DNA from: Saprospiraceae bacterium
Lineage (GTDB): Bacteria > Bacteroidota > Bacteroidia > Chitinophagales > Saprospiraceae
NCBI GenBank assembly: GCA_031373665.1
Contig: JANMMZ010000085.1
Coordinates: 1,389 to 65,388 of the forward strand
DNA length: 64,000 nucleotides
Reading direction: 5' to 3'
Part shown: positions 6,505 to 39,923 of the stretch, in pieces
Layout of the letters: each line of letters opens with the position of its first letter
Numbering within the stretch: position 1 is the first letter of the stretch
The notes under the pieces: generated by a model
The model's input: only the letters and a program-made list of their open reading frames with translations
What the model was told of the DNA's origin: nothing
Databases searched by the model: none
Position numbers and translations under genes: made by a program

Positions 6505-6523
6505 ATTTGTCTGATGTGGGTAT

Positions 6524-7711: not shown

Positions 7712-7822
7712 TTTAGCAATAAATTTGTTGTTAAAAATATTTGACCGCAAAGTTATTGCCAATAATTTATAACAACAAATTTATTGCTAAAAATTATTAT
7801 TATTTTTTGAAACTTAGATTCC

Positions 7823-9850: not shown

Positions 9851-9912
9851 GATGCCCGTTTCCACTCGCTCCGCAACGACCTCATCCCGAAAAAAAATCG
9901 GGATTACGTGCT
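9851..9912 (-). repeat. Conserved hairpin plus a vestigial permease 3' coding end (site A)
   Basis: Hairpin: atcccga (9884-9890), loop a7, tcgggat (9898-9904). On the minus strand it is followed by ATG AGG TCG TTG CGG AGC GAG TGG, which reads MRSLRSE-W, with the former stop mutated. Confidence 0.85.
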
Positions 9913-12324
9913 TTATTCGCTGCGCAGGCTCTTAACTGGATTGGACAACGCCGCTTTCACCGCCTGAAAACCCACCGTCAAAAACGCAATAACCGCCGCC
10001 GCCACACCTACTGCGACGAACACCCACCACGAGATTTCGATGCGATACGCGAAGTCAGCCAGCCATTTGTTCATGAAGTAATAAGCAATCGGAGATGCAA
10101 TGACAATGGCGACAATAACCAATTTCAAAAAATCTTTGGCCAAAAGACTTGTGATACCCGCTACCGAGGCGCCGAGTACTTTACGGATGCCGATTTCCTT
10201 CGTCCGTTGTCCAATTACAAATGCTGACAAAGCCAGTAATCCCAAGCAAGCGATGCAAATAGATAACAATGTGGCAAAAAGTAGGGCTTGCGCAAGCCGA
10301 TTTTCGCTTTCGTATATCTGTGCAAAATGCTCATCCATAAATGTGTAGTCAAACGGACGGTCTTTCACATGCCGCATCCAAACCTCCCGTGACTGGCTCA
10401 AAACCGCTTGCATATTGGCCGCGCCGACCTTCATCGAAATCACCGACGACACCTGTGAGGCTTGCATACAAATCGGTGAAATGGCGTGTCGCAGCGTATT
10501 GTGGTGCATATCGCGGATAATGCCGACTACTCGGCCAGGGGTGCTTTGGCCAAAAGTGGCACGCATGATTTCTTTGCCGATAGGGTCGTCCTTCCAGCCC
10601 ATTTTTTTTACAAACGCCTCATTTACAATGTATTCTGTCTCGTTTAATGCGCCTTCGTACGTGGGTGCCCGACCTGCCACAAATTGCATCCCGTACAAAC
10701 CGAAGTAATTGTGGTCGGCTCGGATAATGCTCATCGGGTGGTTTTCCCATTGACGGGTTTCGGGATTGCGCACCATCAAACCGTTTTGGCGGTCAATGGT
10801 GCCGAGCGATTGGTCGCTGCTGCTGACCGCTTCGACCCCGGGGATGGCCGCAAGTTCCGTTTTCAGGGCGGTTGCGTGCATCCAATTGCCGTTGCCGATG
10901 TCCATTTCCACGACCTGCGCAAAACTAAAACCCAAGTCTTTGTTTTTCAAAAAACTCAATTGCTGATAACAAATCAGCGAGCCTAACATCAATATCCCCG
11001 ACAAGGCAAATTGCACCACCACAAGGTTTTGAATGAATGGGCGTTTCAGCGAAACGGCTGTCCTGTGCTGCTGAAAGGTTTGTGTAACACCATGTCGGGC
11101 AGCTTGAATGGCAGGGTAAATGCCTGACAATAGACCGAGCAAAATAACTATCGCAGCAAACCCCAACAACACTTCTGTTGGGAAAGGCAAATCAACATCG
11201 CGCCCGAGCAGGCTCAAAAAAGGCTTGCGGATCAGGGTTGCCCAAAGCAAACCCAATGCGCCCGCTAACACTGTCATCATCAAGGATTCGCTCAAAAAAT
11301 TGCCCATAATATCGCCGCGTGATGCGCCGAGCGAGCGGCGAACCCCTACTTCTCGCCCTCGTTTTAGGGCTAATACAGTGGATAAATTAGCAAAATTGAT
11401 GCTGCTGATAAGCAAGATGAACAAGGCCAACAAGCCAAGCACACCCACGTACGCCCGATTGGAGCGAAGGTGGTTGTTTTCGTCCTCTAGGTGCATCGAA
11501 CCGAGGTGAATATCGGCAAAGGGCTGCATGGAGAGCGCGATCATTTCCGAGTTGGGCATTTCTTTTTTCAACAATTCGGCAAAAACAGGCTCTAAGGCGG
11601 CTCCATTTTGCACCGAAGGGTGGCATTGGAAATAAGTGGACGACACCACGCCATGCCAACGCGAACCGACATCCCAAGCGTCAAATCGCTGTGCATCAAG
11701 TGGAAATAAGGCATCAAATTGCAAGTGGCTGTTGGCTGGTAAATCCTTCAAAACACCCGAAACCGTGAAAAAAATCGTCGTGTCCTGACCCGAAGGCAGG
11801 GTAAAAGTGTTTTCCACGATTTTGCCGAGCGGCATTTCTGTGCCGAACAAAGCCACGCTGACCGGGAGGGTCAACAGAATGTTTTCAGGCCGTGCAAAAA
11901 CCGTTGAGGGGTCGCCCAATTGGAGCGCGTAATTGAAAAAGGAAAAAAATGAAGTATCCACTTCTAGGCACTTTTGAAGCGTCGTTTCGCGGCTGCCACT
12001 ACGGCAGAGAATGTTTTCGCTTGAAGGGAGCACCCGCAAAAAACGCTCGATGTCACCACATTCCCGGTGTAAAAAAGGCCCCATCATCGCCGATGAAAGC
12101 GCGTGGGTGCTTTCTGGCGAATTGGGATATTTGAAGGCCGTATTCAAGCGGTACAGGCTCGGATGAGCCGGGTTTATTCGGTCAAAATTGAATTCAAAAT
12201 GCAGATACACGCCGATCAACACACAAATGGCAAGGCTGACTGACAGCCCGAAAATGTTGATGGCCGAAAAATTGGCGTTTTTCCAGAGATTTCGGAAGAT
12301 GAGTTTTATTTTATGTATATACAT
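9913..12324 (-). CDS. ABC-transporter permease, duplicated FtsX/MacB type
   Basis: 803 aa. N-terminus MYIHKIKLIFRNLWKNANFSAINIFGL. Signatures GREVGVRRSLGAS and TKEIGIRKVLGAS. Ends SNPVKSLRSE. Confidence 0.9.
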   Translation of the reverse strand: MYIHKIKLIFRNLWKNANFSAINIFGLSVSLAICVLIGVYLHFEFNFDRINPAHPSLYRLNTAFKYPNSPESTHALSSAMMGPFLHRECGDIERFLRVLPSSENILCRSGSRETTLQKCLEVDTSFFSFFNYALQLGDPSTVFARPENILLTLPVSVALFGTEMPLGKIVENTFTLPSGQDTTIFFTVSGVLKDLPANSHLQFDALFPLDAQRFDAWDVGSRWHGVVSSTYFQCHPSVQNGAALEPVFAELLKKEMPNSEMIALSMQPFADIHLGSMHLEDENNHLRSNRAYVGVLGLLALFILLISSINFANLSTVLALKRGREVGVRRSLGASRGDIMGNFLSESLMMTVLAGALGLLWATLIRKPFLSLLGRDVDLPFPTEVLLGFAAIVILLGLLSGIYPAIQAARHGVTQTFQQHRTAVSLKRPFIQNLVVVQFALSGILMLGSLICYQQLSFLKNKDLGFSFAQVVEMDIGNGNWMHATALKTELAAIPGVEAVSSSDQSLGTIDRQNGLMVRNPETRQWENHPMSIIRADHNYFGLYGMQFVAGRAPTYEGALNETEYIVNEAFVKKMGWKDDPIGKEIMRATFGQSTPGRVVGIIRDMHHNTLRHAISPICMQASQVSSVISMKVGAANMQAVLSQSREVWMRHVKDRPFDYTFMDEHFAQIYESENRLAQALLFATLLSICIACLGLLALSAFVIGQRTKEIGIRKVLGASVAGITSLLAKDFLKLVIVAIVIASPIAYYFMNKWLADFAYRIEISWWVFVAVGVAAAVIAFLTVGFQAVKAALSNPVKSLRSE

Positions 12325-17276: not shown

Positions 17277-17305
17277 AATTTTATATTTATATTTTTTTAA
17301 ATGTG

Positions 17306-17403
17306 TTATTCGCTCCGCAAACTTTTCATCCCGAAGAAGAATCGGGATTCCATCACTCTGAACGGAGCGACTTGATCCCGAAAAAAAATCGGGATTTCGT
17401 GCC
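17306..17403 (-). repeat. Two conserved hairpins, each followed by a vestigial KSLRSE-stop coding end (site B)
   Basis: Hairpins at 17375-17395 (loop a7) and 17328-17348 (loop agaagaa). The minus strand reads TAA ggcacgaa HAIRPIN c AAG TCG CTC CGT TCA GAG TGA tgga HAIRPIN g AAA AGT TTG CGG AGC GAA TAA. Confidence 0.9.
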
Positions 17404-19839
17404 TTATTCGCTGCGCAGGCTCTCAACAGGATTCGCCAATGCTGCTTTCACACTCTGAAAACCCACCGTCAAAAACGCAATCAGCATGGCTGCTAAACCC
17501 GCAGTTACGAACATCCACCATTGAATATCAATGCGATACGCGAAATCGGCGAGCCATTTATTCATAAAGTAGTAGGCAATGGGCGAAGCGATGACAATGG
17601 CGATGACGACGAGTTTTAGGAAGTCTTTGGCTAACAAGCCCGTGATACCCGCTACCGAGGCACCGAGCACTTTTCGGATGCCGATTTCTTTGGTGCGTCT
17701 TTCGGCGGTGAAAGCAGCCAAGCCAAACAAGCCCAGACAGGCCACAAAAATGGCGATGCCAGCGGCAAGCAATGCCAACACGCCTGTGCGCCTGTCGCTC
17801 CGGTACATCTGATCGAACTGCTCGTTCATGAACTCGTAATCGAAGGGCAGTCCCGGCCCGTTTTTTTGCCAAATAGCCTGGATTTCTGCCAACGTGCCTT
17901 GCACATCGCCGTTTTGAAGGCGAAAACTGATGTTACCCGAGTAATTGCTTTGAATCAGCACCAACGGCTCCACTTTGTTGCGGAGGTTTTCAAAATTGAA
18001 ATCTTCCACCACGCCAATGATTTTCCAATCGGTGAGGCCCTTTGATGCGCCGTCGGACACATCCACTGTGTACAAATTTTGATCAATGGGATTGGCAAAA
18101 CCGAGCATTTTGGCCGCCGATTGGTTGATAATGACGGCATTGGAATCCGCCGGGGAGCCTTCCCTGAAATTGCGGCCAGCCGCCATTCGGATGCCGAGGG
18201 TTGGGATGTAGCCAGCGTCCACTTTCCAGTCGTTTAAGGAAATTGCGTTCTCAGCACTGGTATTTCTGTCCTTGAAAAAGCCGTTGTTGTTGCCATTGCC
18301 ATTGGTCGGCAAATAACCGGTGACTGTGCAGTGTGTGACTTTTGGCAATTGTAATATTTCGTTTTTGAGGATTTGGGCTTTATCGCCCAAAGATTGGGTG
18401 CCGTTGAGGATCAAAACTTGTTCGCGATCGTAGCCGAGGTCTTTGTGCTGTATGAAATCCAATTGTCTATACACGACCAAAACGCCCACAATAAGGAGTA
18501 TGGAGGTCGAAAACTGGAAGGTGACGAGGCCATTGCGCAATAGCTTGCCGCCCGCCCCGCTCGTTAATTGCCCCTTGAGCACGCGCACCGGACTAAAGGC
18601 CGACAGGAAGAATGCCGGATAAAGACCCGACAAAAGACCCGTCAAAATCGTGAAGCCGATCAAAATGGCTATCAACCAAGGGCGTTGGATAAAATCGAAG
18701 GCGATGTGTTTTTCTGTCAAATTATTGAATGCGGGTAACAAAGTCGCTGTCGCCAGCACCGCAATACTCATGGCAAGGCTGCTCACCAATAGTGATTCGG
18801 ACAAAAACTGGCTTACCAATTGGTTTTTTTGCGAACCCAATGCCTTCCGAACGCCTACCTCCCGTGCCCGCATCGAGGAGCGGGCTGTGCTTAGGTTCAT
18901 AAAATTAACCACAGCCAGTACCAAAACAAATAAAGCAATAGCCGAAAACACCCATACCAATTCGATACTCCCAGGGGGACGCAAAGCCCCCGATTGTGCG
19001 CCTGCATACAGGTGGATGTCGGTCAGAGGTAGCAACTTGAACTCGTAGCGGGTGCCAGCCTTCAGCATGTCATCCCAAGAAGTATTAAGTATTTGTTGGG
19101 CCTGTCCGCCGATGTGTTTTCGGACGATTTTGGGCAGTTCCGGGGCAAAAGCAACAGCATCCGCGCCTTTTTGGAACAAAATATAGGTGTGAAAATTGCT
19201 ACTTAACCATGCATCCTCTGCACTCTCGGCAAGCGTGGACATGCTCATCAAAAAATCGAATTGAAAATGACTATTTTCCGGCATGTCGCGCACGACTCCG
19301 CTGATTTCGTACTGGTCTTCCTTACTGTTCAAGGAAAGTGACTGACCAAGTGCATCGCCTTTTGGGAAATATTTGTTGGCAATCGTCTCGCTGATGACCA
19401 GGGTGTACGGTCGTACCAAAGCCGTTTTCGGGTCGCCTGCCACCAAGGGCAGGCTGAATACCCGAAACAAAGTGCTGTCCGCTAAAATCGCCTGGTTTTC
19501 TTCAAACAATTGGTCGCCCTTCCAGACGGGCAAATGTCCAAAATTGCGCAAACGGCAGGTTGTTTCCACCTGCGGATATTCTCGCGCCAGCAAAGGGCCG
19601 AGCGGCGCCGGAGCCTCAATGACGTTGGACTCGGCACCCCCAAAATTGATCTCGGAATCAATCCGGTAAATGCGGTTTGCATGGACATTGAAGCGGTCGA
19701 AACTTAGTTCGTCCAGCACCCACAACGCGATGAGTAAGCAACAAGTGAGGCCTAACGCCAAGCCGAGAATGTTGATGGCCGCAAAACCACGCTGTTTGCG
19801 GAGATTGCGCCAGGCGAGTTTGAAATAGTTAGTTAGCAT
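17404..19839 (-). CDS. ABC-transporter permease, duplicated FtsX/MacB type
   Basis: 811 aa. N-terminus MLTNYFKLAWRNLRKQRGFAAINILGL. Signatures AREVGVRKALGS and TKEIGIRKVLGAS. Ends ANPVESLRSE. Confidence 0.9.
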   Translation of the reverse strand: MLTNYFKLAWRNLRKQRGFAAINILGLALGLTCCLLIALWVLDELSFDRFNVHANRIYRIDSEINFGGAESNVIEAPAPLGPLLAREYPQVETTCRLRNFGHLPVWKGDQLFEENQAILADSTLFRVFSLPLVAGDPKTALVRPYTLVISETIANKYFPKGDALGQSLSLNSKEDQYEISGVVRDMPENSHFQFDFLMSMSTLAESAEDAWLSSNFHTYILFQKGADAVAFAPELPKIVRKHIGGQAQQILNTSWDDMLKAGTRYEFKLLPLTDIHLYAGAQSGALRPPGSIELVWVFSAIALFVLVLAVVNFMNLSTARSSMRAREVGVRKALGSQKNQLVSQFLSESLLVSSLAMSIAVLATATLLPAFNNLTEKHIAFDFIQRPWLIAILIGFTILTGLLSGLYPAFFLSAFSPVRVLKGQLTSGAGGKLLRNGLVTFQFSTSILLIVGVLVVYRQLDFIQHKDLGYDREQVLILNGTQSLGDKAQILKNEILQLPKVTHCTVTGYLPTNGNGNNNGFFKDRNTSAENAISLNDWKVDAGYIPTLGIRMAAGRNFREGSPADSNAVIINQSAAKMLGFANPIDQNLYTVDVSDGASKGLTDWKIIGVVEDFNFENLRNKVEPLVLIQSNYSGNISFRLQNGDVQGTLAEIQAIWQKNGPGLPFDYEFMNEQFDQMYRSDRRTGVLALLAAGIAIFVACLGLFGLAAFTAERRTKEIGIRKVLGASVAGITGLLAKDFLKLVVIAIVIASPIAYYFMNKWLADFAYRIDIQWWMFVTAGLAAMLIAFLTVGFQSVKAALANPVESLRSE

Positions 19840-19914: not shown

Positions 19915-19965
19915 CTACTCACTCCGCAGCGACTTCATCCCGAAAAAAAATCGGGATTTCGTGCC
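19915..19965 (-). repeat. Conserved hairpin plus a vestigial KSLRSE-stop coding end (site C)
   Basis: Hairpin at 19937-19957 (atcccga a7 tcgggat). On the minus strand it is followed by ATG AAG TCG CTG CGG AGT GAG TAG. Confidence 0.9.
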
Positions 19966-22389
19966 TTATTCGCTGCGCAGGCTCTCAACAGGATTCGCCA
20001 ATGCTGCTTTCACACTCTGAAAACCCACCGTCAAAAACGCAATCAGCATGGCCGCCGCACCCGCAGTTACGAACATCCACCATTGAATATCAATCCGATA
20101 CGCGAAATCGGCGAGCCATTTATTCATAAAGTAGTAGGCAATGGGCGAAGCGATGACAATAGCGATCACAACCAATTTCAAAAAGTCTTTGGTTAGCAAG
20201 CCCGTGATGCCTGCTACCGAAGCACCAAGTACTTTTCGGATACCCATTTCCTTTACTTTTGATTCGATTGTGAATGATACCAACCCAAACAAGCCCAAGC
20301 AAGCAATAAATATGGCCCACAAGGACGCTGCCGCAAACAACCAAGAGTATTGCTGTTCACTGAGGTATGCTTTTTGAAAATTATCGTCGGCAAAAAAGTA
20401 TTCAAATGGATTTCCACTAAAATACTGCCCATATATTTTTTCTAAGGCAGCGATTTTTGCTGGTAAATCGTTGGCCGTAAGCCTTACGGTAAAGTAGGCA
20501 CTGTTGTTTTGCGGGTAATACAAGATCGGCTCGATCGGTTTTTGTAAACTTGTATGATGGTAATCTTTCACCACGCCCACAATGTCTAGGTACCGCTCGT
20601 CCCATTTTATTTTTGTCGTAAGGGCCTCTTCCGCTGTTAATCCCAGCGAAGCGAGGGCCTTTTCATTGACCAAAATTTTGCTATTGTCATTCCATTCTAT
20701 ATTGCATTCGGCACCAGTGAAATTGCGCCCTGTACGCAAGGGCAATCCATATACATCTAAGAATCGCTCGCCGATGATGGCAAAATTGTACGATTTTTCC
20801 TCGTCATTGGGCTTAGATTTTGGAGAGGTAAACCCAGCGGTAGCAAAATTATAACCCTCACTTGGCACACTACCCGTCGCACAATAATCCTGTACAAAAT
20901 TCTGGGTAGCGATGGCGTTCCCAAACCCTGTTTTTCTAAACTTGTAGGTGCTGTCACGGCCTATTTCAGGCCCTCTGATCACCAGCAATTGCTCGGTATT
21001 GATGCCCAACTCTTTGTTTTGCATGTATTTTAATTGGCTATATATAACCACCGTAAATAAGATCAATACCGTGGAAATGCCAAATTGTGCCACCACCAAT
21101 GTTTGGCGTAACCGCAGTCCACTGACGGATTTGGTCAGTTTGCCTCTTAGGGTTTCTATAGGATTGTAGCGTGCAATAGCATTGGCTGTAAAAGCACCAG
21201 ATAAAAGAGAGCCTAAGAACAACGCACCCAAACCATAAAGCCAGACACGGGTTTGGAATAGTGCGGATAGGTCAAGGGTTTTGCCGATGACAAGGTTGAA
21301 AAGCGGTTGCAATGCGACAATTAATATAACTGCCAAGGTTAGGGCCAATAAGTTAACGACCAGTGTTTCGCTCAGAAACTGGGCAATCAACGTGCCTTTA
21401 CTTGCACCGATGGCCTTTCGAACGCCCACCTCTTTGGCTCTGCGGAGGGCATTGGCAGTGCTTAAATTGACGTAGTTAAACCAAGCAATGAGCAGGATCA
21501 AGAATCCAATACCAGCCAGCATGTAAACGTACCGAACATTGCCAGTGTGGAACAAGTTATCGGTGAAATTATTAGCCAAATGTGTTTCCCCAAATGCTTG
21601 AAGTCGGAAAGACACCGCATCTTTTTCAGGTTGAAGGTTGCGACGTAGGGCTGTCAATTTTTGCTCCAATGCTACCGGATCAGAATGCTGATCGAGGAGG
21701 AAAAACATATTGGTGAATTGAGAATCTAGGTTATCCAACCTAGCCCAACCGTTTTCGTTCAGATTGGCTTCATTTTTCAAGGTTTCCAAGGAAAAAACCA
21801 TGTCAAAACGGATATCTGAATTTTCACCCATGTCTTCAAAAACACCTCCCACGATGTAGCGATGGTTTCCAAATTGATTATATAAGGTCAAGGATTTTTC
21901 CAAAGGATTTTCTTGCCCAAAATACTTTTTAGCGTATGATTTTGAAATAAAAACCACATCAGGCTGTTTTAATGCGGCAGCGTCTCCTTGGATCACTGGG
22001 AAACTGAAGAACTCAAAGAAATTGCCTTCTCCATAGCAGACATTCTTCTCCCGATAAGATAGGTTTTTTGCCTCGTTTTTGACAATCCCTTGGCCAATCC
22101 CTTCCCCAAATCGGCAAAATGCCTTGATTTCAGGGAAATTCTCCGTTGATTTTGTTGCCCAACCAGGTTCTACCTCCGGCCATGATTTTCCGTCTGAACT
22201 TTGGCACAAAACACGGTACATCTGGGGTAGTTTTGTATGAAACCGATTGACACTTTGCTCCAAACTAACGTATTGTAGGATCAAAGCAAAGGCAGTAATG
22301 CCCAAAGCCAATCCAGCAATGTTGAGCGCACTATACATACGGCGGCTGCTTAGGCTGCGCCATGCCATTTTGAAATGATTGTATATCAT
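19966..22389 (-). CDS. ABC-transporter permease, duplicated FtsX/MacB type
   Basis: 807 aa. N-terminus MIYNHFKMAWRSLSSRRMYSALNIAGL. Signatures AKEVGVRKAIGAS and VKEMGIRKVLGAS. Ends ANPVESLRSE. The start lies only 4 nt after the stop of the upstream paralogue. Confidence 0.9.
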   Translation of the reverse strand: MIYNHFKMAWRSLSSRRMYSALNIAGLALGITAFALILQYVSLEQSVNRFHTKLPQMYRVLCQSSDGKSWPEVEPGWATKSTENFPEIKAFCRFGEGIGQGIVKNEAKNLSYREKNVCYGEGNFFEFFSFPVIQGDAAALKQPDVVFISKSYAKKYFGQENPLEKSLTLYNQFGNHRYIVGGVFEDMGENSDIRFDMVFSLETLKNEANLNENGWARLDNLDSQFTNMFFLLDQHSDPVALEQKLTALRRNLQPEKDAVSFRLQAFGETHLANNFTDNLFHTGNVRYVYMLAGIGFLILLIAWFNYVNLSTANALRRAKEVGVRKAIGASKGTLIAQFLSETLVVNLLALTLAVILIVALQPLFNLVIGKTLDLSALFQTRVWLYGLGALFLGSLLSGAFTANAIARYNPIETLRGKLTKSVSGLRLRQTLVVAQFGISTVLILFTVVIYSQLKYMQNKELGINTEQLLVIRGPEIGRDSTYKFRKTGFGNAIATQNFVQDYCATGSVPSEGYNFATAGFTSPKSKPNDEEKSYNFAIIGERFLDVYGLPLRTGRNFTGAECNIEWNDNSKILVNEKALASLGLTAEEALTTKIKWDERYLDIVGVVKDYHHTSLQKPIEPILYYPQNNSAYFTVRLTANDLPAKIAALEKIYGQYFSGNPFEYFFADDNFQKAYLSEQQYSWLFAAASLWAIFIACLGLFGLVSFTIESKVKEMGIRKVLGASVAGITGLLTKDFLKLVVIAIVIASPIAYYFMNKWLADFAYRIDIQWWMFVTAGAAAMLIAFLTVGFQSVKAALANPVESLRSE

Positions 22390-28004: not shown

Positions 28005-30407
28005 TCATTCACTCCTGAGTGATTTCACTGGATTCACCAAAGCCGCCTTCACCGACTGGAAACCTACGGTCAAAAATGCGATCAATACCGCCACCAAACC
28101 TGCGATGGCAAACATCCACCACTCCACTTCAATGCGATAGGCAAAATCAGCCAGCCACTTATCCATTAAATAATAGGCAATCGGAGAAGCGATGACAATG
28201 GCGATGACCACGAGTTTCAAAAAATCCTTAGCAAGCATACCCGTAATACCCGCGACCGAGGCTCCGAGTACTTTTCGGATGCCGATTTCTTTGGTGCGTT
28301 GCCGCGTGGTATAGGTAGCCAGCCCAAATAGCCCGATACCGGCAATGAAAACTGCCAGCAGGGCAAATAAAGTGGCTATACTGCCCGATTGCTGTTCGGT
28401 GCGATACATTTCGTCAAACTCTTGATCAAGAAACTCATAGTTGAAAGGACGATGAGGCGCCACCTTTTTCCACGTGCTTTCGATACTGCTCAGGGTGGCT
28501 TGTATGTCGTCGCCATTAAATTTGATGAGCAATTTATTCACCTCCTGATCGGTAAGGAATAGGGCCAGTGGGCCAATGTTTTCGTGCAATGAAGCGATAT
28601 GGAAATCTTTGCTGACTCCCTTCACCGTGCCGTCTCTCCCGTTGAGGCTCAACCGCTTACCAATAGCCATTTGGGGTGTCCAGCCCAGTGTTTTCGCTGC
28701 TGACTCATTGATGATGAAGCAATAACGTCGTAGTTCTGCACTGTCCATAGCAATCTGAGCGATGTCTGATTCGACAAAGTCTTGCCCCGCTACCAGTTGG
28801 ATGCCCAGTGTTTTGATATAGTCATAGTCTGTACCCACCGCGCTGATGCCCAACTGAAAGTCTTCGGGTTTGCCCTCTGCCCACACACTGTAGCCTCCCT
28901 TTACCAAGGTGGGGGTCTCGGAGCCTGCCGCCACCTGTTGGATTCGGGAGTCAGATTTTAACTCATTTTTGATGCTGGTAAGGTTTTTTCTCACTATCCG
29001 ATCCATGGGTAGTACCACGACTCGCTCTTTGTCGTAGCCCAATTTTCGGTTTTGGATATAGGTCATCTGTTGGTTGATGACGAAGGTGCCAATAAACAAT
29101 AGGATGGATACTACAAACTGAAACACCACCAAGCCTCGACGGAGACCGCCTCCGCTTCCGGTGGTTTTAAAATTGCCTTTTAGTACTTTCACTGGTTGAA
29201 AATTGGACAGCACAAAGGCCGGATATCCGCCTGCAAGAAGGCTGACCACTACACCTAGACCCAGAAATCCAGCCAGTGCAAGGGGGCTTTCCATAAAAAC
29301 AAAACTGAGATCACGTCCACTCAATCTGCTGAAAGCAGGGAGCAATAAGAAGGTGGTCAGTGAAGCGAGTGCCAAGGCAATGCTGGTAAAAAAGACTGAT
29401 TCGCCAATGAATTGCCGCACCAATTGTCCACGGAAGGCGCCCACTACTTTGCGGATACCTGTTTCGCTGGCTCGCTCAATGGCTTGCGCAGTGGTCAAGT
29501 TGATGTAGTTGATACAGGCAATCAGTAAGATCAGGAGTGCAATAGCCGAAAAAATATAGAGGTACTGGATATCATTACCCGGCTCCAGCCCACCTGCTAC
29601 GCGGGCCTTTAGGTGTACTTCGCGCATGGGTTGCAACACGTAAGTAAGATAACTGCCTGCCGTAAAATCACCCTTCATCACTTGAGCCATATGGTCTTTG
29701 ATTTTGGCTTCTATCGGTACCGCTGCCATCGGATCGGTGAGCAGTAGGTAGGTATAAAAATTGGCCGAACCCCAAATGTGCTCGCGCCAGTTTTCCAAGG
29801 TATGGAATGAAGCCACAAAGTCGAACTTGATTTGCGAGTTTTGGGGTGGATCGGCTACCACGCCACTCACTGTCAGGTCAGTGCTGGCTCCCAACCGCAA
29901 AGTCTTGCCCATCGGGTCTTCTTTACCAAAATACTGGTTGGCCATCTGCTCAGTCAGTACCACGGTGTTCATCTGATCGAGCATCGTACGCGGGTCACCT
30001 TTGATTACTTTGAAAGAAAAGATGTCAAAAAATGTTGAATCTGCCCATAAAAAGCCTTTTTCTTCCCGTGCCTCGTCATGATACCGCAGCACCGCAGGTG
30101 AAAAATCTGAAGTGCTATAAATCCGAACACCCGACTCCACTTCGGGAAAAACTCGCTTAAATTCAGGATAAGCGGCAGTGGGAGTCGTGCTAAATTCGGA
30201 GGTCTCTCCACTATCTTGAACCAGTGTGGTTAGCCTGAAAATTCGGTCGCCTTGCTGTTGGAAGCCATCGTAACTCAACTCGGACACCACATAAGTAGCG
30301 ATGAGCATAAAACAAGCCAACCCAACGCTCAGGCCAGCGATATTGATGAATGCGTACATCTTATTTCGTCGCATCCGTCGCATCATAGTGCGAAAAAAAA
30401 TGGCCAT
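28005..30407 (-). CDS. ABC-transporter permease, duplicated FtsX/MacB type
   Basis: The track start at 30425 is a TTG. ATGs occur at 30416 and 30407, and 30407 (MAIFFRTMMRRMRRNKMYAFINIAGL) aligns best with the paralogue N-termini. Signatures ASETGIRKVVGAF and TKEIGIRKVLGAS. Ends VNPVKSLRSE. Confidence 0.85.
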   Translation of the reverse strand: MAIFFRTMMRRMRRNKMYAFINIAGLSVGLACFMLIATYVVSELSYDGFQQQGDRIFRLTTLVQDSGETSEFSTTPTAAYPEFKRVFPEVESGVRIYSTSDFSPAVLRYHDEAREEKGFLWADSTFFDIFSFKVIKGDPRTMLDQMNTVVLTEQMANQYFGKEDPMGKTLRLGASTDLTVSGVVADPPQNSQIKFDFVASFHTLENWREHIWGSANFYTYLLLTDPMAAVPIEAKIKDHMAQVMKGDFTAGSYLTYVLQPMREVHLKARVAGGLEPGNDIQYLYIFSAIALLILLIACINYINLTTAQAIERASETGIRKVVGAFRGQLVRQFIGESVFFTSIALALASLTTFLLLPAFSRLSGRDLSFVFMESPLALAGFLGLGVVVSLLAGGYPAFVLSNFQPVKVLKGNFKTTGSGGGLRRGLVVFQFVVSILLFIGTFVINQQMTYIQNRKLGYDKERVVVLPMDRIVRKNLTSIKNELKSDSRIQQVAAGSETPTLVKGGYSVWAEGKPEDFQLGISAVGTDYDYIKTLGIQLVAGQDFVESDIAQIAMDSAELRRYCFIINESAAKTLGWTPQMAIGKRLSLNGRDGTVKGVSKDFHIASLHENIGPLALFLTDQEVNKLLIKFNGDDIQATLSSIESTWKKVAPHRPFNYEFLDQEFDEMYRTEQQSGSIATLFALLAVFIAGIGLFGLATYTTRQRTKEIGIRKVLGASVAGITGMLAKDFLKLVVIAIVIASPIAYYLMDKWLADFAYRIEVEWWMFAIAGLVAVLIAFLTVGFQSVKAALVNPVKSLRSE

Positions 30408-30458
30408 TTCATACATATACAACAAGTTTATTTTTTAATAAATATAGACATCGGCAAA

Positions 30459-30556
30459 TCACTCGCTGCGCAGGCTCTTCATCCCGAAGGAAAATCGGGA
30501 TTCCATCACTCACTTCGGAGTGATTTTATCCCGAAGAAAAATCGGGATTTCGTGCC
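30459..30556 (-). repeat. Two conserved hairpins, each followed by a vestigial KSLRSE-stop coding end (site D)
   Basis: Hairpins at 30528-30548 (loop agaaaaa) and 30481-30501 (loop aggaaaa). The minus strand reads TAA ggcacgaa HAIRPIN a AAA TCA CTC CGA AGT GAG TGA tgga HAIRPIN g AAG AGC CTG CGC AGC GAG TGA. Confidence 0.9.
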
Positions 30557-33016
30557 TTATTCGCTGCGCAGGCTCTTAACTGGATTGGCCAAAGCCGCTT
30601 TCACCGACTGGAAACCTACTGTCAAAAACGCAATCAATACCGCTGCCAAGCCAGCCACTGCGAATATCCACCACGAAATATCAATCCGATAAGCGAAGTC
30701 GGCAAGCCAATTATTCATAAAGTAATAAGCAATTGGCGAAGCAATTAGGATCGCAATGACAACTAATTGTAGGAAATCTTTGGCCAAAAGCCCCGTGATG
30801 CCCGCAATAGATGCACCTAGTACCTTTCGGATGCCTATTTCTTTGATTCGCTGCTCCGCAGCATAGGTAGCCAGACCAAACAAGCCAATGCAAGCGATGA
30901 AAATCGCCGCTATTGCCGCCCAAATCAACATGGCTTCACGGCGGGCATCTTCGGTATAAAAAAGAGCCAATTGCTGGTCGAGGTAATGGTATTCAAACAG
31001 TTCATCAGGATCAATTTTTGCTAAAATACCTTCCATCGCTTTTATGGTGGTGGCAGCGTCTTTTGATTCGATTCTTGAAGTATAATAATCAATGTTTTGA
31101 ACGGGATTTTGCCGATACGCCAAGACCAAAGGGGCAATTTTTTCTCTTAATGTCTGAAAATTGAAATCTTTTACTATCCCAATCACCCGGGCTTTAAATG
31201 CCTGATTGCCACGAAGCGGGACATACGTTCCGCCGTATGATGCAGCCGGAATTTCAATCAATTGATCAGATGGCTCTGTGATATTTAGGAGTTTGGCCGC
31301 CGTTTCATTTAATAAAACAGAGGAAGTATCGCCCAAACCGCTGAAATTTTTGCCTTTCAATAATTCTACCTCAAAGGTATTGGAAAAATGCTCATCCACG
31401 CCTAACAAATATGAAACTTTCTGTTCATCAGGATAGCCCATTTGCCTTATTTTAACACTGGGAATATTTTTCCATTCACCTGGCACCCGTGAAGTAGTGG
31501 ATACATTTTTTACATTGGGTATTTTTTCAAATTCTGAAACGATGGTGGAGGCTGCTCTTCTTATCGTGCCACTGTTGATATCCACGACCACCAAAAGGTC
31601 TTTATTGAACCCCAAATCTTTGCTGTTGACGAAACGAACTTGCAAAAACATCACGATGGTTGCAATGATCATAAATACAGATACCGAAAATTGGAAAACA
31701 ACCAAGCCTTTTCGCAAAGAAAAACCTGATTTGTCTTGAATTTTTAGACTTTTCAATAACATATTAGGGCTAAATTGGGAAAGCATCAATGCTGGATAAG
31801 AGCCTGATAATATACCTGTCAAGATAGCCACACTAAATGATGCAACCCAAATCCTATAATCGGTTGAAAAACCAAGTGAGAGTTGTTTGTTGGTAAATTC
31901 ATTGAAAAACGGGATCATTAAATTGACCAATAAAATAGCCAAAACAAAAGAAAATAGCGTTACCAATACTGATTCTACCAGAAATTGTGTTACCAATTGC
32001 CCTTTAAATGCACCCACAACCTTTTTTATCCCAATCTCTTTGCTGCGATTGGAGGCTTTAGCAGTAGTGAGATTCATATAGTTGATACAAGCAATCATCA
32101 ATACAAAAAGAGCGACCAACGCAAATATTTTCACGTACAAAAGATACCCTGTGCCGGCTCCCAATTGATTGAAGTTTCTGGCACCATCCGTAATGCTTTC
32201 GGAATGAAGGTGAACATCTTTGAGTGGCTGAAGGCTATAGGCCAATGATACACCCAGTGCTGGCTTATAGTTGGCATTGACCAATTGCCCTAGTTTTTGT
32301 GAAACAGCGACAAGGTTGGCATCTTTTCGGAGCAGCGTATAAACGGAATATTCGCTTGAGCCCCAATCGCTATTCACCTCATTTACATAACTGGAATCAG
32401 CATAATAGGTGCTTTCGGAATAAACAGAACTAAAATCAAAACTTGAATTCCGAGGATGATTTTTAAGCACTGCGGTAACAGTAAATGGTTGTTCATAGCC
32501 TTGCCATTTCAACGTCTTTCCGGCTACTTGTGTACTGCCAAAAAGTTGAAGGGCCAACGCTTCCACAATGACAATGGAGTTGGGAGCCGTCAAAGCCGTT
32601 TTGGGATTACCATCAAGGGCTTCAAAATCAAATATCTCCATTAAACCATTGTTGGCAACCGTGATTTCTTCATTCACTTTTTTCTGATCTGCCAAGTTTT
32701 CAAGCATATCTCTACCCCCTTGTGCCATGCGGGCTGTATTTTCAATTTCTCCAATACTGATTTTCGATGCTTCCGCCAGTTTGTAACTTGCTCCTGCTAT
32801 TTTAACATCCTCATCGGGTGATTTTCTGTGCTTGATAACACGGCATATTCGATCAGCATTGGTATGATGACTGTCGTAGGTAATCTCATCAATGACGTAA
32901 AGGCCTAATATCAAAAAACAGGCAAGACCGAAGGTCAGGCCAGCGATGTTTAGCACTGCGTGGAGTTTGTTTCTGAAGAGATTTCGGACAGCGATTTTTA
33001 GATAATTGGATACCAT
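30557..33016 (-). CDS. ABC-transporter permease, duplicated FtsX/MacB type (first gene of the array in transcription direction)
   Basis: Start set at the ATG at 33016 (MVSNYLKIAVRNLFRNKLHAVLNIAGL). Signatures SKEIGIKKVVGAF and IKEIGIRKVLGAS. Ends ANPVKSLRSE. Confidence 0.9.
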   Translation of the reverse strand: MVSNYLKIAVRNLFRNKLHAVLNIAGLTFGLACFLILGLYVIDEITYDSHHTNADRICRVIKHRKSPDEDVKIAGASYKLAEASKISIGEIENTARMAQGGRDMLENLADQKKVNEEITVANNGLMEIFDFEALDGNPKTALTAPNSIVIVEALALQLFGSTQVAGKTLKWQGYEQPFTVTAVLKNHPRNSSFDFSSVYSESTYYADSSYVNEVNSDWGSSEYSVYTLLRKDANLVAVSQKLGQLVNANYKPALGVSLAYSLQPLKDVHLHSESITDGARNFNQLGAGTGYLLYVKIFALVALFVLMIACINYMNLTTAKASNRSKEIGIKKVVGAFKGQLVTQFLVESVLVTLFSFVLAILLVNLMIPFFNEFTNKQLSLGFSTDYRIWVASFSVAILTGILSGSYPALMLSQFSPNMLLKSLKIQDKSGFSLRKGLVVFQFSVSVFMIIATIVMFLQVRFVNSKDLGFNKDLLVVVDINSGTIRRAASTIVSEFEKIPNVKNVSTTSRVPGEWKNIPSVKIRQMGYPDEQKVSYLLGVDEHFSNTFEVELLKGKNFSGLGDTSSVLLNETAAKLLNITEPSDQLIEIPAASYGGTYVPLRGNQAFKARVIGIVKDFNFQTLREKIAPLVLAYRQNPVQNIDYYTSRIESKDAATTIKAMEGILAKIDPDELFEYHYLDQQLALFYTEDARREAMLIWAAIAAIFIACIGLFGLATYAAEQRIKEIGIRKVLGASIAGITGLLAKDFLQLVVIAILIASPIAYYFMNNWLADFAYRIDISWWIFAVAGLAAVLIAFLTVGFQSVKAALANPVKSLRSE

Positions 33017-34997: not shown

Positions 34998-36659
34998 ATG
35001 AGTGAAGATTATAAAAGGGGGTTGGAATCGCAACTTTGGAACATTGCCAATACGCTACGTGGCAAAATGAATGCAGACGAATTTCGTGACTACATTTTGG
35101 GTTTCATTTTCTATAAATACCTAAGCGAGAAAATGAACATTTTCGCTGACGAAATCTTGAAACAAGACAATATCAAGTTTCAAGAAATAACACCAAAGAC
35201 TACAGACGGGGCAGCATTTATTGAAGCCATAAAAGAAGAAGCCTTGGAAAAATTGGGCTACTTTCTAAGACCTGAAGAACTGTTTACAGAAGTTGCCAAA
35301 CGAGGAAATTTAATTACGAATGACGAATTAGAAGTGACGAATGAAAAAGAAGACTCAAAAAAAGTAATTCGTAATTCTCAATTCGTAATTAATGAAACCA
35401 ATTTCATTTTAGAAGATTTACAAAAAATCCTGATCAATATCCAGTTGAGTACCATGGGTACTGAAAGCGAAGAAGATTATGAGAATCTCTTTGAGGATAT
35501 GGATTTGAATAGTTCAAAATTAGGCAAAACTCCAGAGGCAAGAAATGCAATCATTGCAAAAGTGCTAACGCACCTTGACAAAATTGATTTCATGTTAGTT
35601 GATCAACATGGCCGTGCTCATCAACATGAAAATGATGTTTTGGGCGATGCTTACGAATATTTGATTGGACAATTTGCCAGTGGTGCAGGAAAAAAAGCAG
35701 GTGAATTTTATACACCGCAACAAGTCTCTACAATTTTGGCAAAAATAGTAACCACAGGAAAACAAAAACTAAAATCAGTTTATGACCCTACTTGTGGTTC
35801 GGGTTCTTTGTTGCTTCGTGTGGCAAGGGAGGTAGAAGATGTAAGTAATTTTTACGGACAAGAAATGAACCGTACTACTTACAACCTTGCCCGCATGAAT
35901 ATGATTTTGCACGGGGTGCATTACCGCCAATTTGATATTAAACAGGACGATACACTCGAACACCCACAGCATATTGACCAACAATTTGAAGCCATTGTAG
36001 CCAATCCACCATTTTCGGCTCAATGGAGTGCCAACCCATTGTTTACCAGTGACGACCGTTTTAGCCAATACGGACGACTTGCACCCAGTAGTAAAGCCGA
36101 CTTTGCTTTTGTGCAACACATGATTTACCATTTGGCAGACAATGGCACGATGGCCATTGTTTTGCCGCACGGTGCTTTGTTTAGAGGTGGTGCAGAGCAA
36201 CACATTCGAACGTATTTGATAGAAAACAAAAACTTTTTAGATGCCGTCATTGGCTTGCCAGCCAATATATTTTATGGTACCAGTATTCCAACGTGTATTT
36301 TGGTTTTCAAAAAGTGTAGAGAAAACCCTGATGACATTTTGTTCATAGATGCCAGCCAGCATTTTGAGAAAGTGAAAACCCAAAATGTTTTAAGGCCCAA
36401 AGACATTGATTTAATTATTGACACGTACCGTAAGAGAACGGAATTGCCAAAGTACAGCAAGAAAGCAACATTAGAGGAAATTGCTAAAAACGATTACAAC
36501 CTGAATATACCAAGGTATGTAGATACCTTTGAGGCAGAAGAAAATATAGACATTGAAGCCATCGCCACAGCACTCAAAGCATTGGATGAATCAATGGCGG
36601 ATACTGACAAAACCATTGCACAGTTTTGTAAGGAATTGGGTATTTCAACACCTTTTTAA
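34998..36659 (+). CDS. hsdM: Type I restriction-modification system, DNA methyltransferase subunit M
   Basis: 553 aa. AdoMet motif I VYDPTCGSGSLLL and catalytic motif IV IVANPPFSAQW. N-terminal HsdM_N-like LWNIANTLRGKMNADEFRDYILGFIFYKYLSE. Confidence 0.95.
   Translation: MSEDYKRGLESQLWNIANTLRGKMNADEFRDYILGFIFYKYLSEKMNIFADEILKQDNIKFQEITPKTTDGAAFIEAIKEEALEKLGYFLRPEELFTEVAKRGNLITNDELEVTNEKEDSKKVIRNSQFVINETNFILEDLQKILINIQLSTMGTESEEDYENLFEDMDLNSSKLGKTPEARNAIIAKVLTHLDKIDFMLVDQHGRAHQHENDVLGDAYEYLIGQFASGAGKKAGEFYTPQQVSTILAKIVTTGKQKLKSVYDPTCGSGSLLLRVAREVEDVSNFYGQEMNRTTYNLARMNMILHGVHYRQFDIKQDDTLEHPQHIDQQFEAIVANPPFSAQWSANPLFTSDDRFSQYGRLAPSSKADFAFVQHMIYHLADNGTMAIVLPHGALFRGGAEQHIRTYLIENKNFLDAVIGLPANIFYGTSIPTCILVFKKCRENPDDILFIDASQHFEKVKTQNVLRPKDIDLIIDTYRKRTELPKYSKKATLEEIAKNDYNLNIPRYVDTFEAEENIDIEAIATALKALDESMADTDKTIAQFCKELGISTPF
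35312..35392. mobile_element. 81-nt palindromic AATTACGAAT-family element embedded in frame in hsdM
   Basis: taattacgaat (35312-35322) and attcgtaatta (35382-35392) are exact reverse complements. Internal gacgaat/attcgta repeats are present. 81 nt is 27 codons, translated as ITNDELEVTNEKEDSKKVIRNSQFVIN. Confidence 0.8.
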
Positions 36660-36660
36660 T

Positions 36661-37255
36661 TGTCTGAATCACAGATTTAATGGATTTAATGATTTCACGG
36701 AATATGAACACAGCATTAAAATACAAGGACATAACCGAAAAAATATTAGGTGCTTCGTTTGAAGTGCATAAATTTTTAGGCAACGGCTTTCAAGAAGTCA
36801 TTTATCAGAGAGCATTGGCTTGGGAAATGAAGCAGAAAGGATTAGAATTTGCCAGAGAAATAGAACAAGATATTTTTTATAAGGATTTGCCAGAACCTAT
36901 TGGTACAAGAAGAGCAGATTTTGTAGTAGAGGGAAAAATTTTGGTGGAGTTAAAAGCCGTTATTCAATTAGAAGACGTGCATTTAGCACAAGCTTTGAAC
37001 TACCTCAAAGCCTATAAATTAGAAGTTGGTTTATTAATAAATTTTGGGAGCAAATCGCTCACTTTTAAACGTATTGTACTATGATAAAACAAAATAGTCA
37101 GCATCACGGATTGAAAAATAGTCAGCATCACGGATTAAAAAATAGTCAGAATCACGGATTAAACGGATTAAAGGATGACACTGATTTAAAATCGGAAAAT
37201 AATCAAAAAAAATCCGTGAAATCTGTGCAATCCTTTAAAATCCGTGATTCAGACA
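36661..37255. mobile_element. Composite of a GxxExxY ORF bracketed by TGTCTGAATCAC(G/A)GATT-family repeats
   Basis: The left end tgtctgaatcacagattt begins at 36661, 2 nt after the hsdM stop. The right side has three 24-nt tandem repeats (agtcag(c/a)atcacggatt at 37096, 37120 and 37144). It then carries a full element body ending aatccgtgattcagaca at 37239-37255, the reverse complement of the left end. Confidence 0.7.
36680..37084 (+). CDS. GxxExxY family protein (PD-(D/E)XK nuclease-like fold)
   Basis: Contains the GFQEVIY (G-x-x-E-x-x-Y) motif. Family-typical ILGASFEVHKFLG and ADFVVEGKILVELKAV (D...ExK-like) segments, and C-terminal LINFG. An alternative start is the ATG at 36704 (MNTALKYKD). 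The stop TGA overlaps the hsdS ATG as ATGA at 37081-37084. Confidence 0.85.
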   Translation: MDLMISRNMNTALKYKDITEKILGASFEVHKFLGNGFQEVIYQRALAWEMKQKGLEFAREIEQDIFYKDLPEPIGTRRADFVVEGKILVELKAVIQLEDVHLAQALNYLKAYKLEVGLLINFGSKSLTFKRIVL

Positions 37256-38532: not shown

Positions 38533-38544
38533 AATTAATTACAA

Positions 38545-39336: not shown

Positions 39337-39372
39337 TTACGAATGTTTAATTACGAATATTTAATTACGAAT
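39321..39372. repeat. Four AATTACGAAT repeats with a 14-nt period, upstream of the four-helix-bundle ORF
   Basis: aattacgaat occurs at 39321, 39335, 39349 and 39363. Confidence 0.9.
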
Positions 39373-39379
39373 CACAAAA

Positions 39380-39805: not shown

Positions 39806-39923
39806 TAAAAATATAAAAACTATAACTCAATTAAAATACAAAATCGTAATTCGTAATTCACAATTCGTAATTAAAAATTCGTAATTCGTAATTAAAAATT
39901 CGTAATTAAAAATTCGTAATTAA
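39727..39923. mobile_element. Palindromic AATTACGAAT / ATTCGTAATT repeat block between the four-helix-bundle ORF and hsdR
   Basis: aattacga at 39743, 39763 and 39784 forms the left arm, with a ~20-nt period. Seven tcgtaatt copies lie between 39844 and 39921 and form the right arm, in inverse orientation. The last repeat abuts the hsdR ATG at 39924. Confidence 0.8.

Follow-up and report, generated by a model that had tools for sequence, protein, structure and literature searches.

What leaves a gene followed, past its own stop codon, by two further untranslated versions of its last seven codons, each set behind a hairpin? The case in point is the end of gene D (site D) in a 64-kb stretch of Saprospiraceae DNA, 64,000 nucleotides long and referred to here as the window. 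With moderate confidence, we read site D as a two-deep stack of a small 3′-end cassette specific to one gene family; a new block of tail and hairpin has probably been added to the end of gene D twice. A description of this layout was not found in the literature.

Site D and its sister sites

Gene D encodes a permease whose sequence is identical to P0001 and 72–83% identical to its orthologues. The sequence-only reading had proposed a two-layer arrangement behind this gene on the minus strand, and all of its elements lie where they had been placed. In the direction of transcription, the gene and its parts are as follows.

30557..33016 (−): gene D, an 819-aa MacB_PCD + FtsX permease (Pfam); ATG at 33016, stop TAA at 30557–30559
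30557–30577 (−): live tail, AAG AGC CTG CGC AGC GAA TAA (KSLRSE*), which makes up the coding portion of the upper (type-2) cassette
30549–30556 (−): type-2 linker, GGCACGAA; also at sites B and C, with AGCACGTA at A and GGCTCGAA in L013
30528–30548 (−): hairpin 1, ATCCCGATTTTTCTTCGGGAT, that is ATCCCGA-TTTTTCT-TCGGGAT; −9.6 kcal/mol, as for hairpin 2
30527 (−): single base A between hairpin foot and inner tail, taken as the last position of the displaced Val codon
30506–30526 (−): inner displaced tail, AAA TCA CTC CGA AGT GAG TGA (KSLRSE*), untranslated
30502–30505 (−): type-1 linker, TGGA; the same in site B, L055 and L062
30481–30501 (−): hairpin 2, ATCCCGATTTTCCTTCGGGAT, that is ATCCCGA-TTTTCCT-TCGGGAT
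30480 (−): single base G before the outer tail, taken as the last position of the oldest Val codon (GTG in the orthologues)
30459–30479 (−): outer displaced tail, AAG AGC CTG CGC AGC GAG TGA (KSLRSE*)

Hairpin 1 also occurs, with identical sequence, 3′ of family genes in other genomes. The inner tail, which forms a hairpin of its own (−6.4 kcal/mol), was once the live tail of a type-1 cassette. The outer tail is probably the ancestral tail of gene D: it agrees with the live tail of the orthologue in L081/L082 at 18 of 21 bases (counted from the sequences), and both Ser codons are AGC in these tails, both being AGT in L048.

The hairpin motif is present six times in the window against 0.02 copies expected, a number reached by none of 100 shuffles. 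All six copies are on the minus strand, directly 3′ of four genes of one family, which adds three sister sites to site D:

17306..17424 (−): site B, a type-2 cassette over a type-1 cassette over an outer tail
19915..19986 (−): site C, one displaced tail under a type-2 cassette
9862..9933 (−): site A, one displaced tail, its stop decayed to TGG, under a type-2 cassette

That sites B and D have the same two-layer layout and TGGA linker, as noted from the letters alone, is borne out by the sequence; the accompanying statement that their codon choices are 'completely different' goes too far, since the two inner tails share 14 of 21 bases (by eye). The type-1 TGGA–hairpin block, which occupies the inner position at B and D, belongs to one cassette type that is live in other genomes (L054, L064, L034 and L041). 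An exact look-up of the gene C protein gave no record, and Rfam returned no match at E ≤ 1 for window positions 9000–34000.

A candidate mobile block of tail, linker and hairpin

The bodies of paralogues A, B, C and D are only ~30% identical, with third-position identity of about 0.4. Over the last seven codons, third-position identity among the four genes is 1.00, and it drops to 0.14–0.43 in pairs with the hairpin-free paralogues g14898 or g28005; across codons 8–50 it stands at 0.47–0.67 in all pairs except B/C, hairpin or not. The live tails of A–D differ solely in the first base of the Lys/Glu codon. The preceding Val codon is GTT in the four hairpin genes and GTG in those hairpin-free paralogues that have Val there. 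Because the upper block is identical at all synonymous positions from A to D, the live end is the newcomer, travelling with the hairpin; live tail, linker and hairpin (about 50 nt) are a common, recently acquired and discrete block with its own history. The earlier proposal that B and D are not copies of each other thus holds for their displaced tails and fails for the upper block, which is a copy common to A–D.

Long 3′ gene-conversion tracts can be rejected as the source of the shared tails, since synonymous identity falls to background just upstream of the last 7–8 codons. The exception is B/C, nearly identical from −195 through the last hairpin base, with the very next base differing, a sign of recombination between these two paralogues. 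On the left, the block always follows ...CCN GT/GC, with an edge that is not placeable to the base; there is no target duplication.

Tail codons are chosen for DNA/RNA folding. The tail DNA is far more self-complementary than its synonymous recodings, and the type-1 cassette folds into two adjoining hairpins (−18.2 kcal/mol, z −3.1). One alternative is a composite RNA/DNA structure selected in place, such as a long terminator or insulator stem, whose tails would be kept for pairing with the live tail and would seem coding only because they are quasi-palindromic. Site D can indeed fold into a single nested quasi-palindrome (−54.8 kcal/mol, z −4.5). However, cognate tails pair no better than non-cognate ones (−14.2 versus −13.9 kcal/mol; 1917 of 5000 permutations perform as well), and no compensatory changes between the two were found; we therefore reject selection of the displaced tail for pairing with its own live tail. 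The inner and live tails of D pair poorly (−5.0), several displaced tails are decaying, the structure is absent from orthologues and an insertion event would be required all the same, making this alternative very improbable.

Displaced tails as former gene ends

Between 4 and 12 of 21 bases differ between displaced and live tails. Even so, xSLRxE-stop is still encoded by 12 of 14 displaced tails in a set found without requiring a tail. If substitutions were random, such intactness would have a probability of less than 0.001 at 13 of the 14 sites and of 0.009 at L025. Decay is seen at site A, in L002, L048 and L073, and in the outer tail of L013. A search for extant paralogues with matching ends, as the sequence-only reading had suggested, gave good partners: the outer tail of B matches g1062 at 20/21 bases, the tail of C g14898 at 19/21 and the inner tail of D g28005 at 18/21. 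Intactness beyond the drift expectation and these matches to live tails together support the original view of the displaced tails as genuine gene ends; the tails behind hairpins are displaced real tails and not copies of one another. The single base after the hairpin (G 34, A 6, T 5 and C 1 among 46 rows, one of them spurious) follows local Val-codon usage.

The same data bear on local tandem duplication of tail and hairpin by slippage, followed by drift, or on use of the downstream tails through read-through or frameshifting. A period of 47 and 51 nt and, at type-2 sites, a 30-nt distance that keeps the first layer in the frame of the live stop would suit these ideas. Against this, the intactness test rejects duplication plus drift, and linkers at one site differ from each other. 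Stop-to-next-tail distances span 24–48 nt (25, 26, 30, 31, 32 and 38 all being common) and have no frame preference, so read-through or frameshift use is rejected as well. The chance that either accounts for site D is practically negligible.

Empty sites and distribution across genomes

All seven fetched orthologue loci of D (72–83% identity; six distinct sequences) are empty, as is the closest orthologue of B. The converse also occurs: g22394 in the window is empty, and its orthologue in L013 (72%) is a two-layer gene. Some 45 junctions were collected, all in one gene family; they come from Saprospiraceae, Lewinellaceae, Ferruginibacter, a KSB1 genome and metagenome contigs. Linker and hairpin each exist in several variants, and stacks are up to three layers deep. 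With orthologues empty and the layout recurring in other genes and phyla, the proposal that B and D are parallel outcomes of one recurrent process is upheld.

In each of the 45 cases, the right junction falls at the hairpin foot. Among 80 gene ends there was no clear case of a family gene with this hairpin that has no intact or decayed tail behind it. The same hairpin sequence has no duplicated tail in other contexts, so a duplicated tail is not a general property of the hairpin sequence. Viral contigs gave 0 matches, and no larger, possibly autonomous element was found between live and displaced tails in the fetched loci.

Recombination between tails

L052 and L068 represent the same locus in two states, with one hybrid tail in the first and two tails around a gene remnant in the second; tail-to-tail recombination is seen directly in this comparison. 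In L025, 24 codons from the 3′ end of a lost paralogue survive. Relatives differ in the order of genes around D and B, and arrays therefore turn over fast. A second layer could thus form without a second insertion, by tail-to-tail recombination that deletes the body between neighbouring single-layer genes.

Taken further, each layer behind the first hairpin would be the remnant of a downstream tandem paralogue, its body deleted by tail-to-tail or microhomology recombination. Beyond the L052/L068 pair, the L025 fragment and the rapid turnover around D and B, this scheme would account for the second layer at D and B, type 2 over type 1, with no second insertion. It cannot create the first layer, however, as hairpin foot and V|K junction lack homology, and the precursor it needs—a family gene followed by the hairpin but by no further tail—is the very arrangement missing from the 80 ends. 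Nor does it explain why A–D live tails are synonymously identical and codons upstream differ, or why the remnant is always exactly seven codons plus one base. As a full account we judge it improbable.

A cassette model for site D

In the cassette reading, which we prefer, the unit would comprise ~46–51 nt: a replacement permease tail, a short linker and a 21-nt hairpin, ATCCCGA-N7-TCGGGAT. The replacement tail would run from approximately the Val codon through K/E-S-L-R-S-E-stop, in hairpin-prone codons. The cassette would land within the conserved ...Asn-Pro-Val|Lys-Ser-Leu-Arg-Ser-Glu-stop end of a paralogue, where the incoming tail terminates the open reading frame; the resident tail, starting at the final base of its Val codon, would stay behind the hairpin, untranslated, and decay. 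At site D, two such events would have left a type-1 cassette (TGA-TGGA-hairpin) beneath a type-2 cassette (TAA-GGCACGAA-hairpin). The cassette provides a stable stem-loop just after the stop, which probably serves at the transcript 3′ end or as an insulator between tandem paralogues.

Copying between paralogues is, on the sequence comparisons, the most likely route of spread. A non-reciprocal copy of a cassette-bearing paralogue would be made through break repair or template switching, anchored on the left by the conserved DNA encoding Asn-Pro-Val and with its right end at the hairpin foot, the point at which the displaced tail of the donor meets the live tail of the recipient. Copying would require no element-encoded enzyme, and the 64-kb window encodes no transposase or integrase. 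Several points count against this route. A search for fresh gain/loss polymorphisms turned up just the L052/L068 pair and caught no donor–recipient pair of a fresh insertion. The right-side homology, only ~21 nt at 60–90% identity, is poor for RecA-type recombination, and the block edges are sharp in most comparisons, which also fits an enzyme-moved element with defined ends. The displaced tails at the four type-2 sites have no common 5′ part, so that a right crossover would have to fall at the hairpin foot. Copying further presupposes a first tail–hairpin–tail unit, whose origin lies outside the model.

An enzyme-moved element would be non-autonomous (a miniature REP, a MITE or an IS200/IS605 derivative), with an enzyme from elsewhere in the genome recognizing the hairpin or hairpins and inserting at the fixed Asn-Pro-Val|Lys point. 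Sharp left and right edges, the unvarying right junction (45/45) and an orientation that is the same everywhere all suit such an element. The two adjacent hairpins of the type-1 cassette resemble the ends of single-stranded DNA transposons, and conservation between genomes looks higher in linker and hairpin than at synonymous tail sites (window, L013 and L079; by eye). On its right side, an unrelated deletion in the L068 gene body breaks at this V|K position as well, a hint of a cleavage or stalling hotspot. But the window holds no candidate enzyme, cassettes are strictly confined to one gene family and the left edge varies in the B/C event. Moreover, the two hairpins of a cassette are dissimilar, at odds with IS200/IS605 ends, most variants lack the GTAG/CGTC head and there is no target-site duplication. 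We regard this reading as unlikely.

A related and tentative idea, possible if rather doubtful, is a self-propagating homing cassette of ~50 nt that has no open reading frame: a recoded copy of its own target, the seven codons at the end of a huge paralogous permease family, plus a hairpin, entering family tails repeatedly and harmlessly, either via a structure-specific enzyme or via hairpin-induced template switching. Were this true, no smaller mobile unit that replaces gene ends would be known, and the cassette would represent a new class of DNA parasite or commensal confined to a single gene family, its stacked tails a readable stratigraphy of past events.

Site D shows how a small structured DNA element could spread among the members of a large gene family without burdening the host: it carries a synonymous copy of the few codons that it displaces. 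The displaced tails are datable fossils of the gene's tail before each event; as they record earlier tails, the sequence can reveal in which order and at what tempo events took place. The system links three subjects that tend to be treated separately: palindromic repeats at gene ends, paralogue recombination in tandem arrays and overlapping codes.

Comparison with known systems

Elements such as e14 and phage 21 in E. coli icd, and islands in tRNA and tmRNA genes, integrate at gene 3′ ends and carry a substitute for the stretch that they displace, which keeps the host gene whole. Site D likewise has a new 3′ end with synonymous differences and the original end left downstream, and in both settings repeated events yield several remnants in a row. 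The differences are that the cassette is ~50 nt long, that the window lacks an integrase gene and that identical attL/attR core repeats are absent; live and displaced tails are separated by only 30 nt of non-coding DNA, with no common core at the two junctions. The cassette also targets the shared tail of a large paralogous family, not one locus. Other systems were set aside from the sequence: integron attC by inspection (arms ATCCCGA/TCGGGAT, no AAC...GTT pair, no RYYYAAC...GTTRRRY core sites), and a CRISPR-like array or tyrosine-recombinase core site (7-7-7 geometry) from the lack of core motifs and of cas or int genes, with loops that differ between copies.

REP and BIME sequences are short stem-loops just after coding regions that in some cases contribute C-terminal residues or a stop codon; different hairpin types alternate in their mosaic arrays, which are probably transcribed, and they are associated with RAYT transposases (PMC3733652, PMC2817692). 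REPs are high in copy number, dispersed after unrelated genes and headed by GTAG or CGTC (PMC3733652, PMC2817692). The 21-nt hairpin, 4–8 nt past the stop, agrees with their 20–40-nt imperfect palindrome after a coding region. In contrast, window copies are preceded by CGAA or TGGA (one metagenome variant has a stem-adjacent GTAG), and the six copies in 64 kb all follow genes of one family. Unlike REPs, the cassette hairpins come with a copy of the seven codons that end the family's genes, and a displaced tail lies behind them in every case. The 64-kb window itself holds no RAYT gene.

Rickettsia palindromic elements, ERIC and YPAL are structured, MITE-type repeats fused in frame to genes without destroying the protein (PMC2229807). 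They and the cassette are both small, structured and able to coexist with coding sequence, but those repeats add foreign residues at many unrelated sites, whereas the cassette reproduces and replaces the host C terminus. Its ends are not inverted repeats, as MITE ends would be, and the flanking tails, with their 4–12 mismatches in 21 bases, are not a target-site duplication. Similar subterminal hairpins of the IS200/IS605 kind are also lacking, the TCACTC...GAGTGA tail hairpin being unrelated to the ATCCCGA hairpin. In the 64-kb window there is no TnpA (Y1 HUH) gene.

At polymorphic toxin, Rhs and CDI loci, recombination brings in a new C-terminal tip and orphan tips come to be layered downstream (PMC3482391). 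Cassette and toxin loci alike displace C-terminal tips and leave layered remnants downstream. Toxin tips, however, span hundreds of codons, differ in function and come with immunity genes; the cassette tips are the same seven residues, and the novelty is the hairpin.

A stable G+C-rich stem-loop a few bases past the stop resembles an intrinsic terminator or a 3′ stabilising stem-loop. The classical form is rejected, as there is no T-run (AAAATC and GAAGAG follow the two site D stems) and a scan of 30300–30700 flags neither hairpin. The same hairpin sequence followed by a T-run does occur after unrelated genes in other bacteria. The hairpin may be a portable 3′-end signal for Bacteroidota. As a practical matter, gene callers can over-extend the next gene through tail remnants.

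Layout of site D

The − strand of the window carries a tandem array of MacB_PCD/FtsX-domain permeases of ~800 aa, all terminating in ...NPVKSLRSE-stop or a near variant. Four of these paralogues bear hairpins at their 3′ ends (sites A–D). The coordinates of site D in the sequence-only reading proved exact when rechecked on the − strand sequence. We term the translated last seven codons the live tail, and an untranslated tail copy behind a hairpin (inner or outer layer) a displaced tail.

Hairpin-bearing genes in the window and elements of site D
9913..12324, −: gene of site A
17404..19839, −: gene of site B, two layers
19966..22389, −: gene of site C
30557..33016, −: gene D CDS, 819 aa
Site D element 1, −: live tail, AAG AGC CTG CGC AGC GAA TAA
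Site D element 2, −: linker after live tail, GGCACGAA
Site D element 3, −: first hairpin, ATCCCGATTTTTCTTCGGGAT
Site D element 4, −: single base A after first hairpin
Site D element 5, −: inner tail, AAA TCA CTC CGA AGT GAG TGA
Site D element 6, −: second linker, TGGA
Site D element 7, −: second hairpin, ATCCCGATTTTCCTTCGGGAT
Site D element 8, −: single base G after second hairpin
Site D element 9, −: outer tail, AAG AGC CTG CGC AGC GAG TGA

Six copies of the hairpin motif occur in the window (0.02 expected), all on the − strand and immediately 3′ of the four paralogues, with a folding energy of −9.6 kcal/mol per hairpin. The motif has no match in Rfam (window 9000–34000, E ≤ 1), and no T-run follows the stems in a scan around site D (30300–30700).

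The array is broken up by STAND/AAA+TPR NTPase genes (3991–7762, −), contains a 208-aa ORF without a Pfam match between two paralogues (24844–25470, −) and adjoins a type I restriction-modification system (HsdM, HsdS, a Fic/DOC protein and HsdR; 34998–42869, +). Mechanical ORFs downstream of sites B and D (14898–17426 and 28005–30425, −) have TTG starts in or just past the stacked-tail regions, the first passing through site B and the second starting 34 nt downstream of the outer tail of site D. Over-extension of these N-termini by gene callers is possible.

A shared tail, linker and hairpin

Live tail, linker and first hairpin are almost identical DNA at all four sites. Scored only at codons with an identical amino acid, third-position identity over the last seven codons is 1.00 among A, B, C and D, and 0.14–0.43 in pairs with g14898 or g28005, two hairpin-free window paralogues. 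At codons 8–50 from the end it is 0.47–0.67 for every pair except B/C, hairpin or not, and in gene bodies about 0.40 for all pairs (protein identity between bodies is only 25–39%). The Val codon before the tail is GTT in all four hairpin genes and GTG in hairpin-free paralogues having Val there; in other variants, an Ala codon (GCG) at this position moves along with the block. The third-position pattern and the shared Val/Ala codon thus mark out a discrete unit of ~50 nt with its own recent history, running from about the Pro/Val codons through stop and linker to the hairpin. We call this replacement tail, linker and hairpin a cassette (type 1, TGA-TGGA-hairpin; type 2, TAA-GGCACGAA-hairpin).

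Six paralogues (genes at 9913, 14898, 17404, 19966, 28005 and 30557) are 79–93% identical over their C-terminal 100 residues and 29–39% in their bodies. The high identity, over the last ~110 codons, reflects mostly protein-level constraint, since synonymous sites there are near background; a recent B/C conversion tract of about 225 nt is the exception. Linker plus 5′ arm, CGAAATCCCGA (30541–30556 and equivalents), resembles the family's Ala-Asn-Pro codons, GCGAATCCNG, two single-base indels apart.

Tails behind the hairpins

Fourteen live/displaced pairs, found without requiring a tail (window plus hairpin-only genome scan), differ within each pair at 4–12 of 21 bases. The xSLRxE-stop pattern is retained in 12 of the 14 displaced tails; chance retention under random substitution is <0.001 at 13 sites; at L025, with just four differences, it is 0.009 (L handles denote loci fetched from other genomes or metagenomes). 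Comparison with extant paralogue ends, as the sequence-only reading had proposed, gave live-tail matches of 18–20 of 21 bases: B outer with g1062 (20/21), C with g14898 (19/21) and D inner with g28005 (18/21). The D outer tail matches the live tail of orthologue L081/L082 at 18/21 (counted by hand), with AGC for both Ser codons in each; L048 has AGT at both. Decay is evident at site A (stop gone), L002, L048, L073 and the L013 outer tail. The single base 3′ of each hairpin tracks the third base of the local Val codon, so the displaced piece begins within that codon. These tails are thus displaced real tails, and the earlier interpretation of site D was largely right; it needs correcting in that live tail and hairpin together are the shared newcomer.

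At L025 (3304–3440), a 24-codon 3′ fragment of another paralogue comes after the live tail NPVDGLKVE-stop, and behind it lie the hairpin and one more displaced tail. A displaced tail at L044 (~2862–2910; GTG AAG AGC CTG ... AGA ACG GAG TGA) is split by a different small hairpin, CCTGCCGGTAGACAGG.

Empty orthologues and recurrence

All seven gene D orthologue loci fetched (72–83% identity; six distinct sequences, one gene read from two contigs) are empty, with neither hairpin nor extra tail, as is the closest gene B orthologue (71%), which points to gain in the lineage of the window. Conversely, window gene g22394 is empty, and its orthologue in L013 (72%) bears the same stack of type 2 over type 1.

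In a hairpin-only scan of one genome per species, family genes followed by the motif turned up in two Saprospiraceae MAGs, a Lewinellaceae MAG (four sites), Ferruginibacter and a KSB1 MAG, every time with a tail one base past the hairpin. Scanning metagenomes for a hairpin foot joined to a tail, a search that demanded an intact tail and is uninformative on decay, added about 30 sites, with numerous variants of linker and hairpin and stacks of up to three layers. A census of 80 distinct family gene ends shows no layer at 45, one at 32 and two at three. Inspection of most, but not all, zero-layer ends with strong hairpins brought up no clear example of this hairpin type lacking a tail, intact or decayed, behind it. 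After other genes, the same hairpin sequence acts as a plain terminator-like stem or belongs to other repeats, and no duplicated tail was found.

A Pelobium MAG (L016, 1645–1894) has five identical 57-nt tandem units, each with the same hairpin, AATCCCGATTTTTCTTCGGGAT. A longer palindromic repeat centred on the same hairpin has at least eight copies in Chryseobacterium/Flavobacteriales MAGs (L005, L006, L007, L009, L023, L027, L031 and L045), with six copies in a single Flavobacteriales MAG and two in one of Chryseobacterium gleum, and has the look of a distinct MITE-like family. In rhizosphere contigs (L055, L070 and L074), a further short repeat, CTGAACCNGGATT...GGGATTATTGGGAA..., directly follows displaced tails downstream of stacks.

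Type 2 lies on top of type 1 at three independent genes, window B (17306–17424), window D (30459–30577) and L013, and the window has no live type-1 site. This order may reflect two successive waves, preferential entry into genes that already have a cassette, or collapse.

Routes to layering

Recombination between paralogues acts at these gene ends. The near-identity of genes B and C starts 195 nt before the stop and continues to the hairpin's last base; the following base differs. One locus sampled twice (L052, 826–870; L068, 4091–4300, −) has a single hybrid tail in one allele and, in the other, two tails around 150 nt with a remnant of another paralogue, in which that gene's first ~40 codons are joined straight to K-S-L-R-T-E-stop. 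The pair shows that the tails themselves recombine, and that a gene body was deleted precisely up to the Val|Lys junction.

We favour a route in which the cassette is copied out of a paralogue that has one, through break repair or template switching, because recombination is seen, no transposase or integrase gene is encoded in the 64-kb window and the tail-hairpin-tail layout is limited to one gene family. The Asn-Pro-Val codons would anchor the copy on the left; its right end would be the hairpin foot, at which the displaced tail of the donor would adjoin the live tail of the recipient. The cassette could also be an enzyme-driven miniature element, given its sharp edges, the constant junction, and a linker and hairpin that look strongly conserved. 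For the second layer specifically, tail-to-tail deletion collapsing two single-layer neighbours into one is a serious rival to a second insertion; this route cannot produce a first layer and leaves the identical live tails unexplained. The two-layer observation is confirmed, with insertion and collapse both possible routes.

Relation to known systems

As with elements integrating into gene 3′ ends, the newcomer supplies a replacement end, and C-terminal tip displacement at polymorphic toxin loci shares this logic (PMC3482391). Physically, the unit takes the form of REP/BIME-like stem-loops, which can overlap gene ends and provide stop codons (PMC3733652, PMC2229807). Literature searches found no published description of the tail-hairpin-tail layout. 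What is new is the combination: a ~50-nt enzyme-less unit, one paralogous family, a synonymous copy of the last seven codons and stacked displaced tails.

Folding at the stop codon

The putative role of the hairpin is most likely that of a transcript 3′ end, or of an insulator separating tandem genes. The tail-coding DNA is hairpin-prone in its own right. Mean energy over 21 nt, against synonymous recodings, is −4.8 kcal/mol (null −1.1) for cassette live tails, −2.4 (−1.0) for ordinary tails and −2.7 (−1.0) for displaced tails, the relatedness of the sequences inflating z-scores. The SLRxE-stop codons of all family gene ends self-fold far better than synonymous recodings; because this extends to genes without a cassette, codon choice around the stop forms an overlapping structural code. 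Tuning of a displaced tail to its own live tail was ruled out (cognate −14.2, non-cognate −13.9 kcal/mol; 1917 of 5000 permutations at least as good).

The type-1 cassette forms a pair of hairpins side by side (−18.2 kcal/mol, z −3.1). Since all its components are palindromic, site D as a whole forms one nested structure (−54.8 kcal/mol, z −4.5). Among the tail variants, the common TCACTCCGTACGGAGTGA is perfectly palindromic; a further variant has a linker that is reverse-complementary to its Ser-Leu codons and covaries with them (TCATTAC/GTAATGA versus TCATTGC/GCAATGA).
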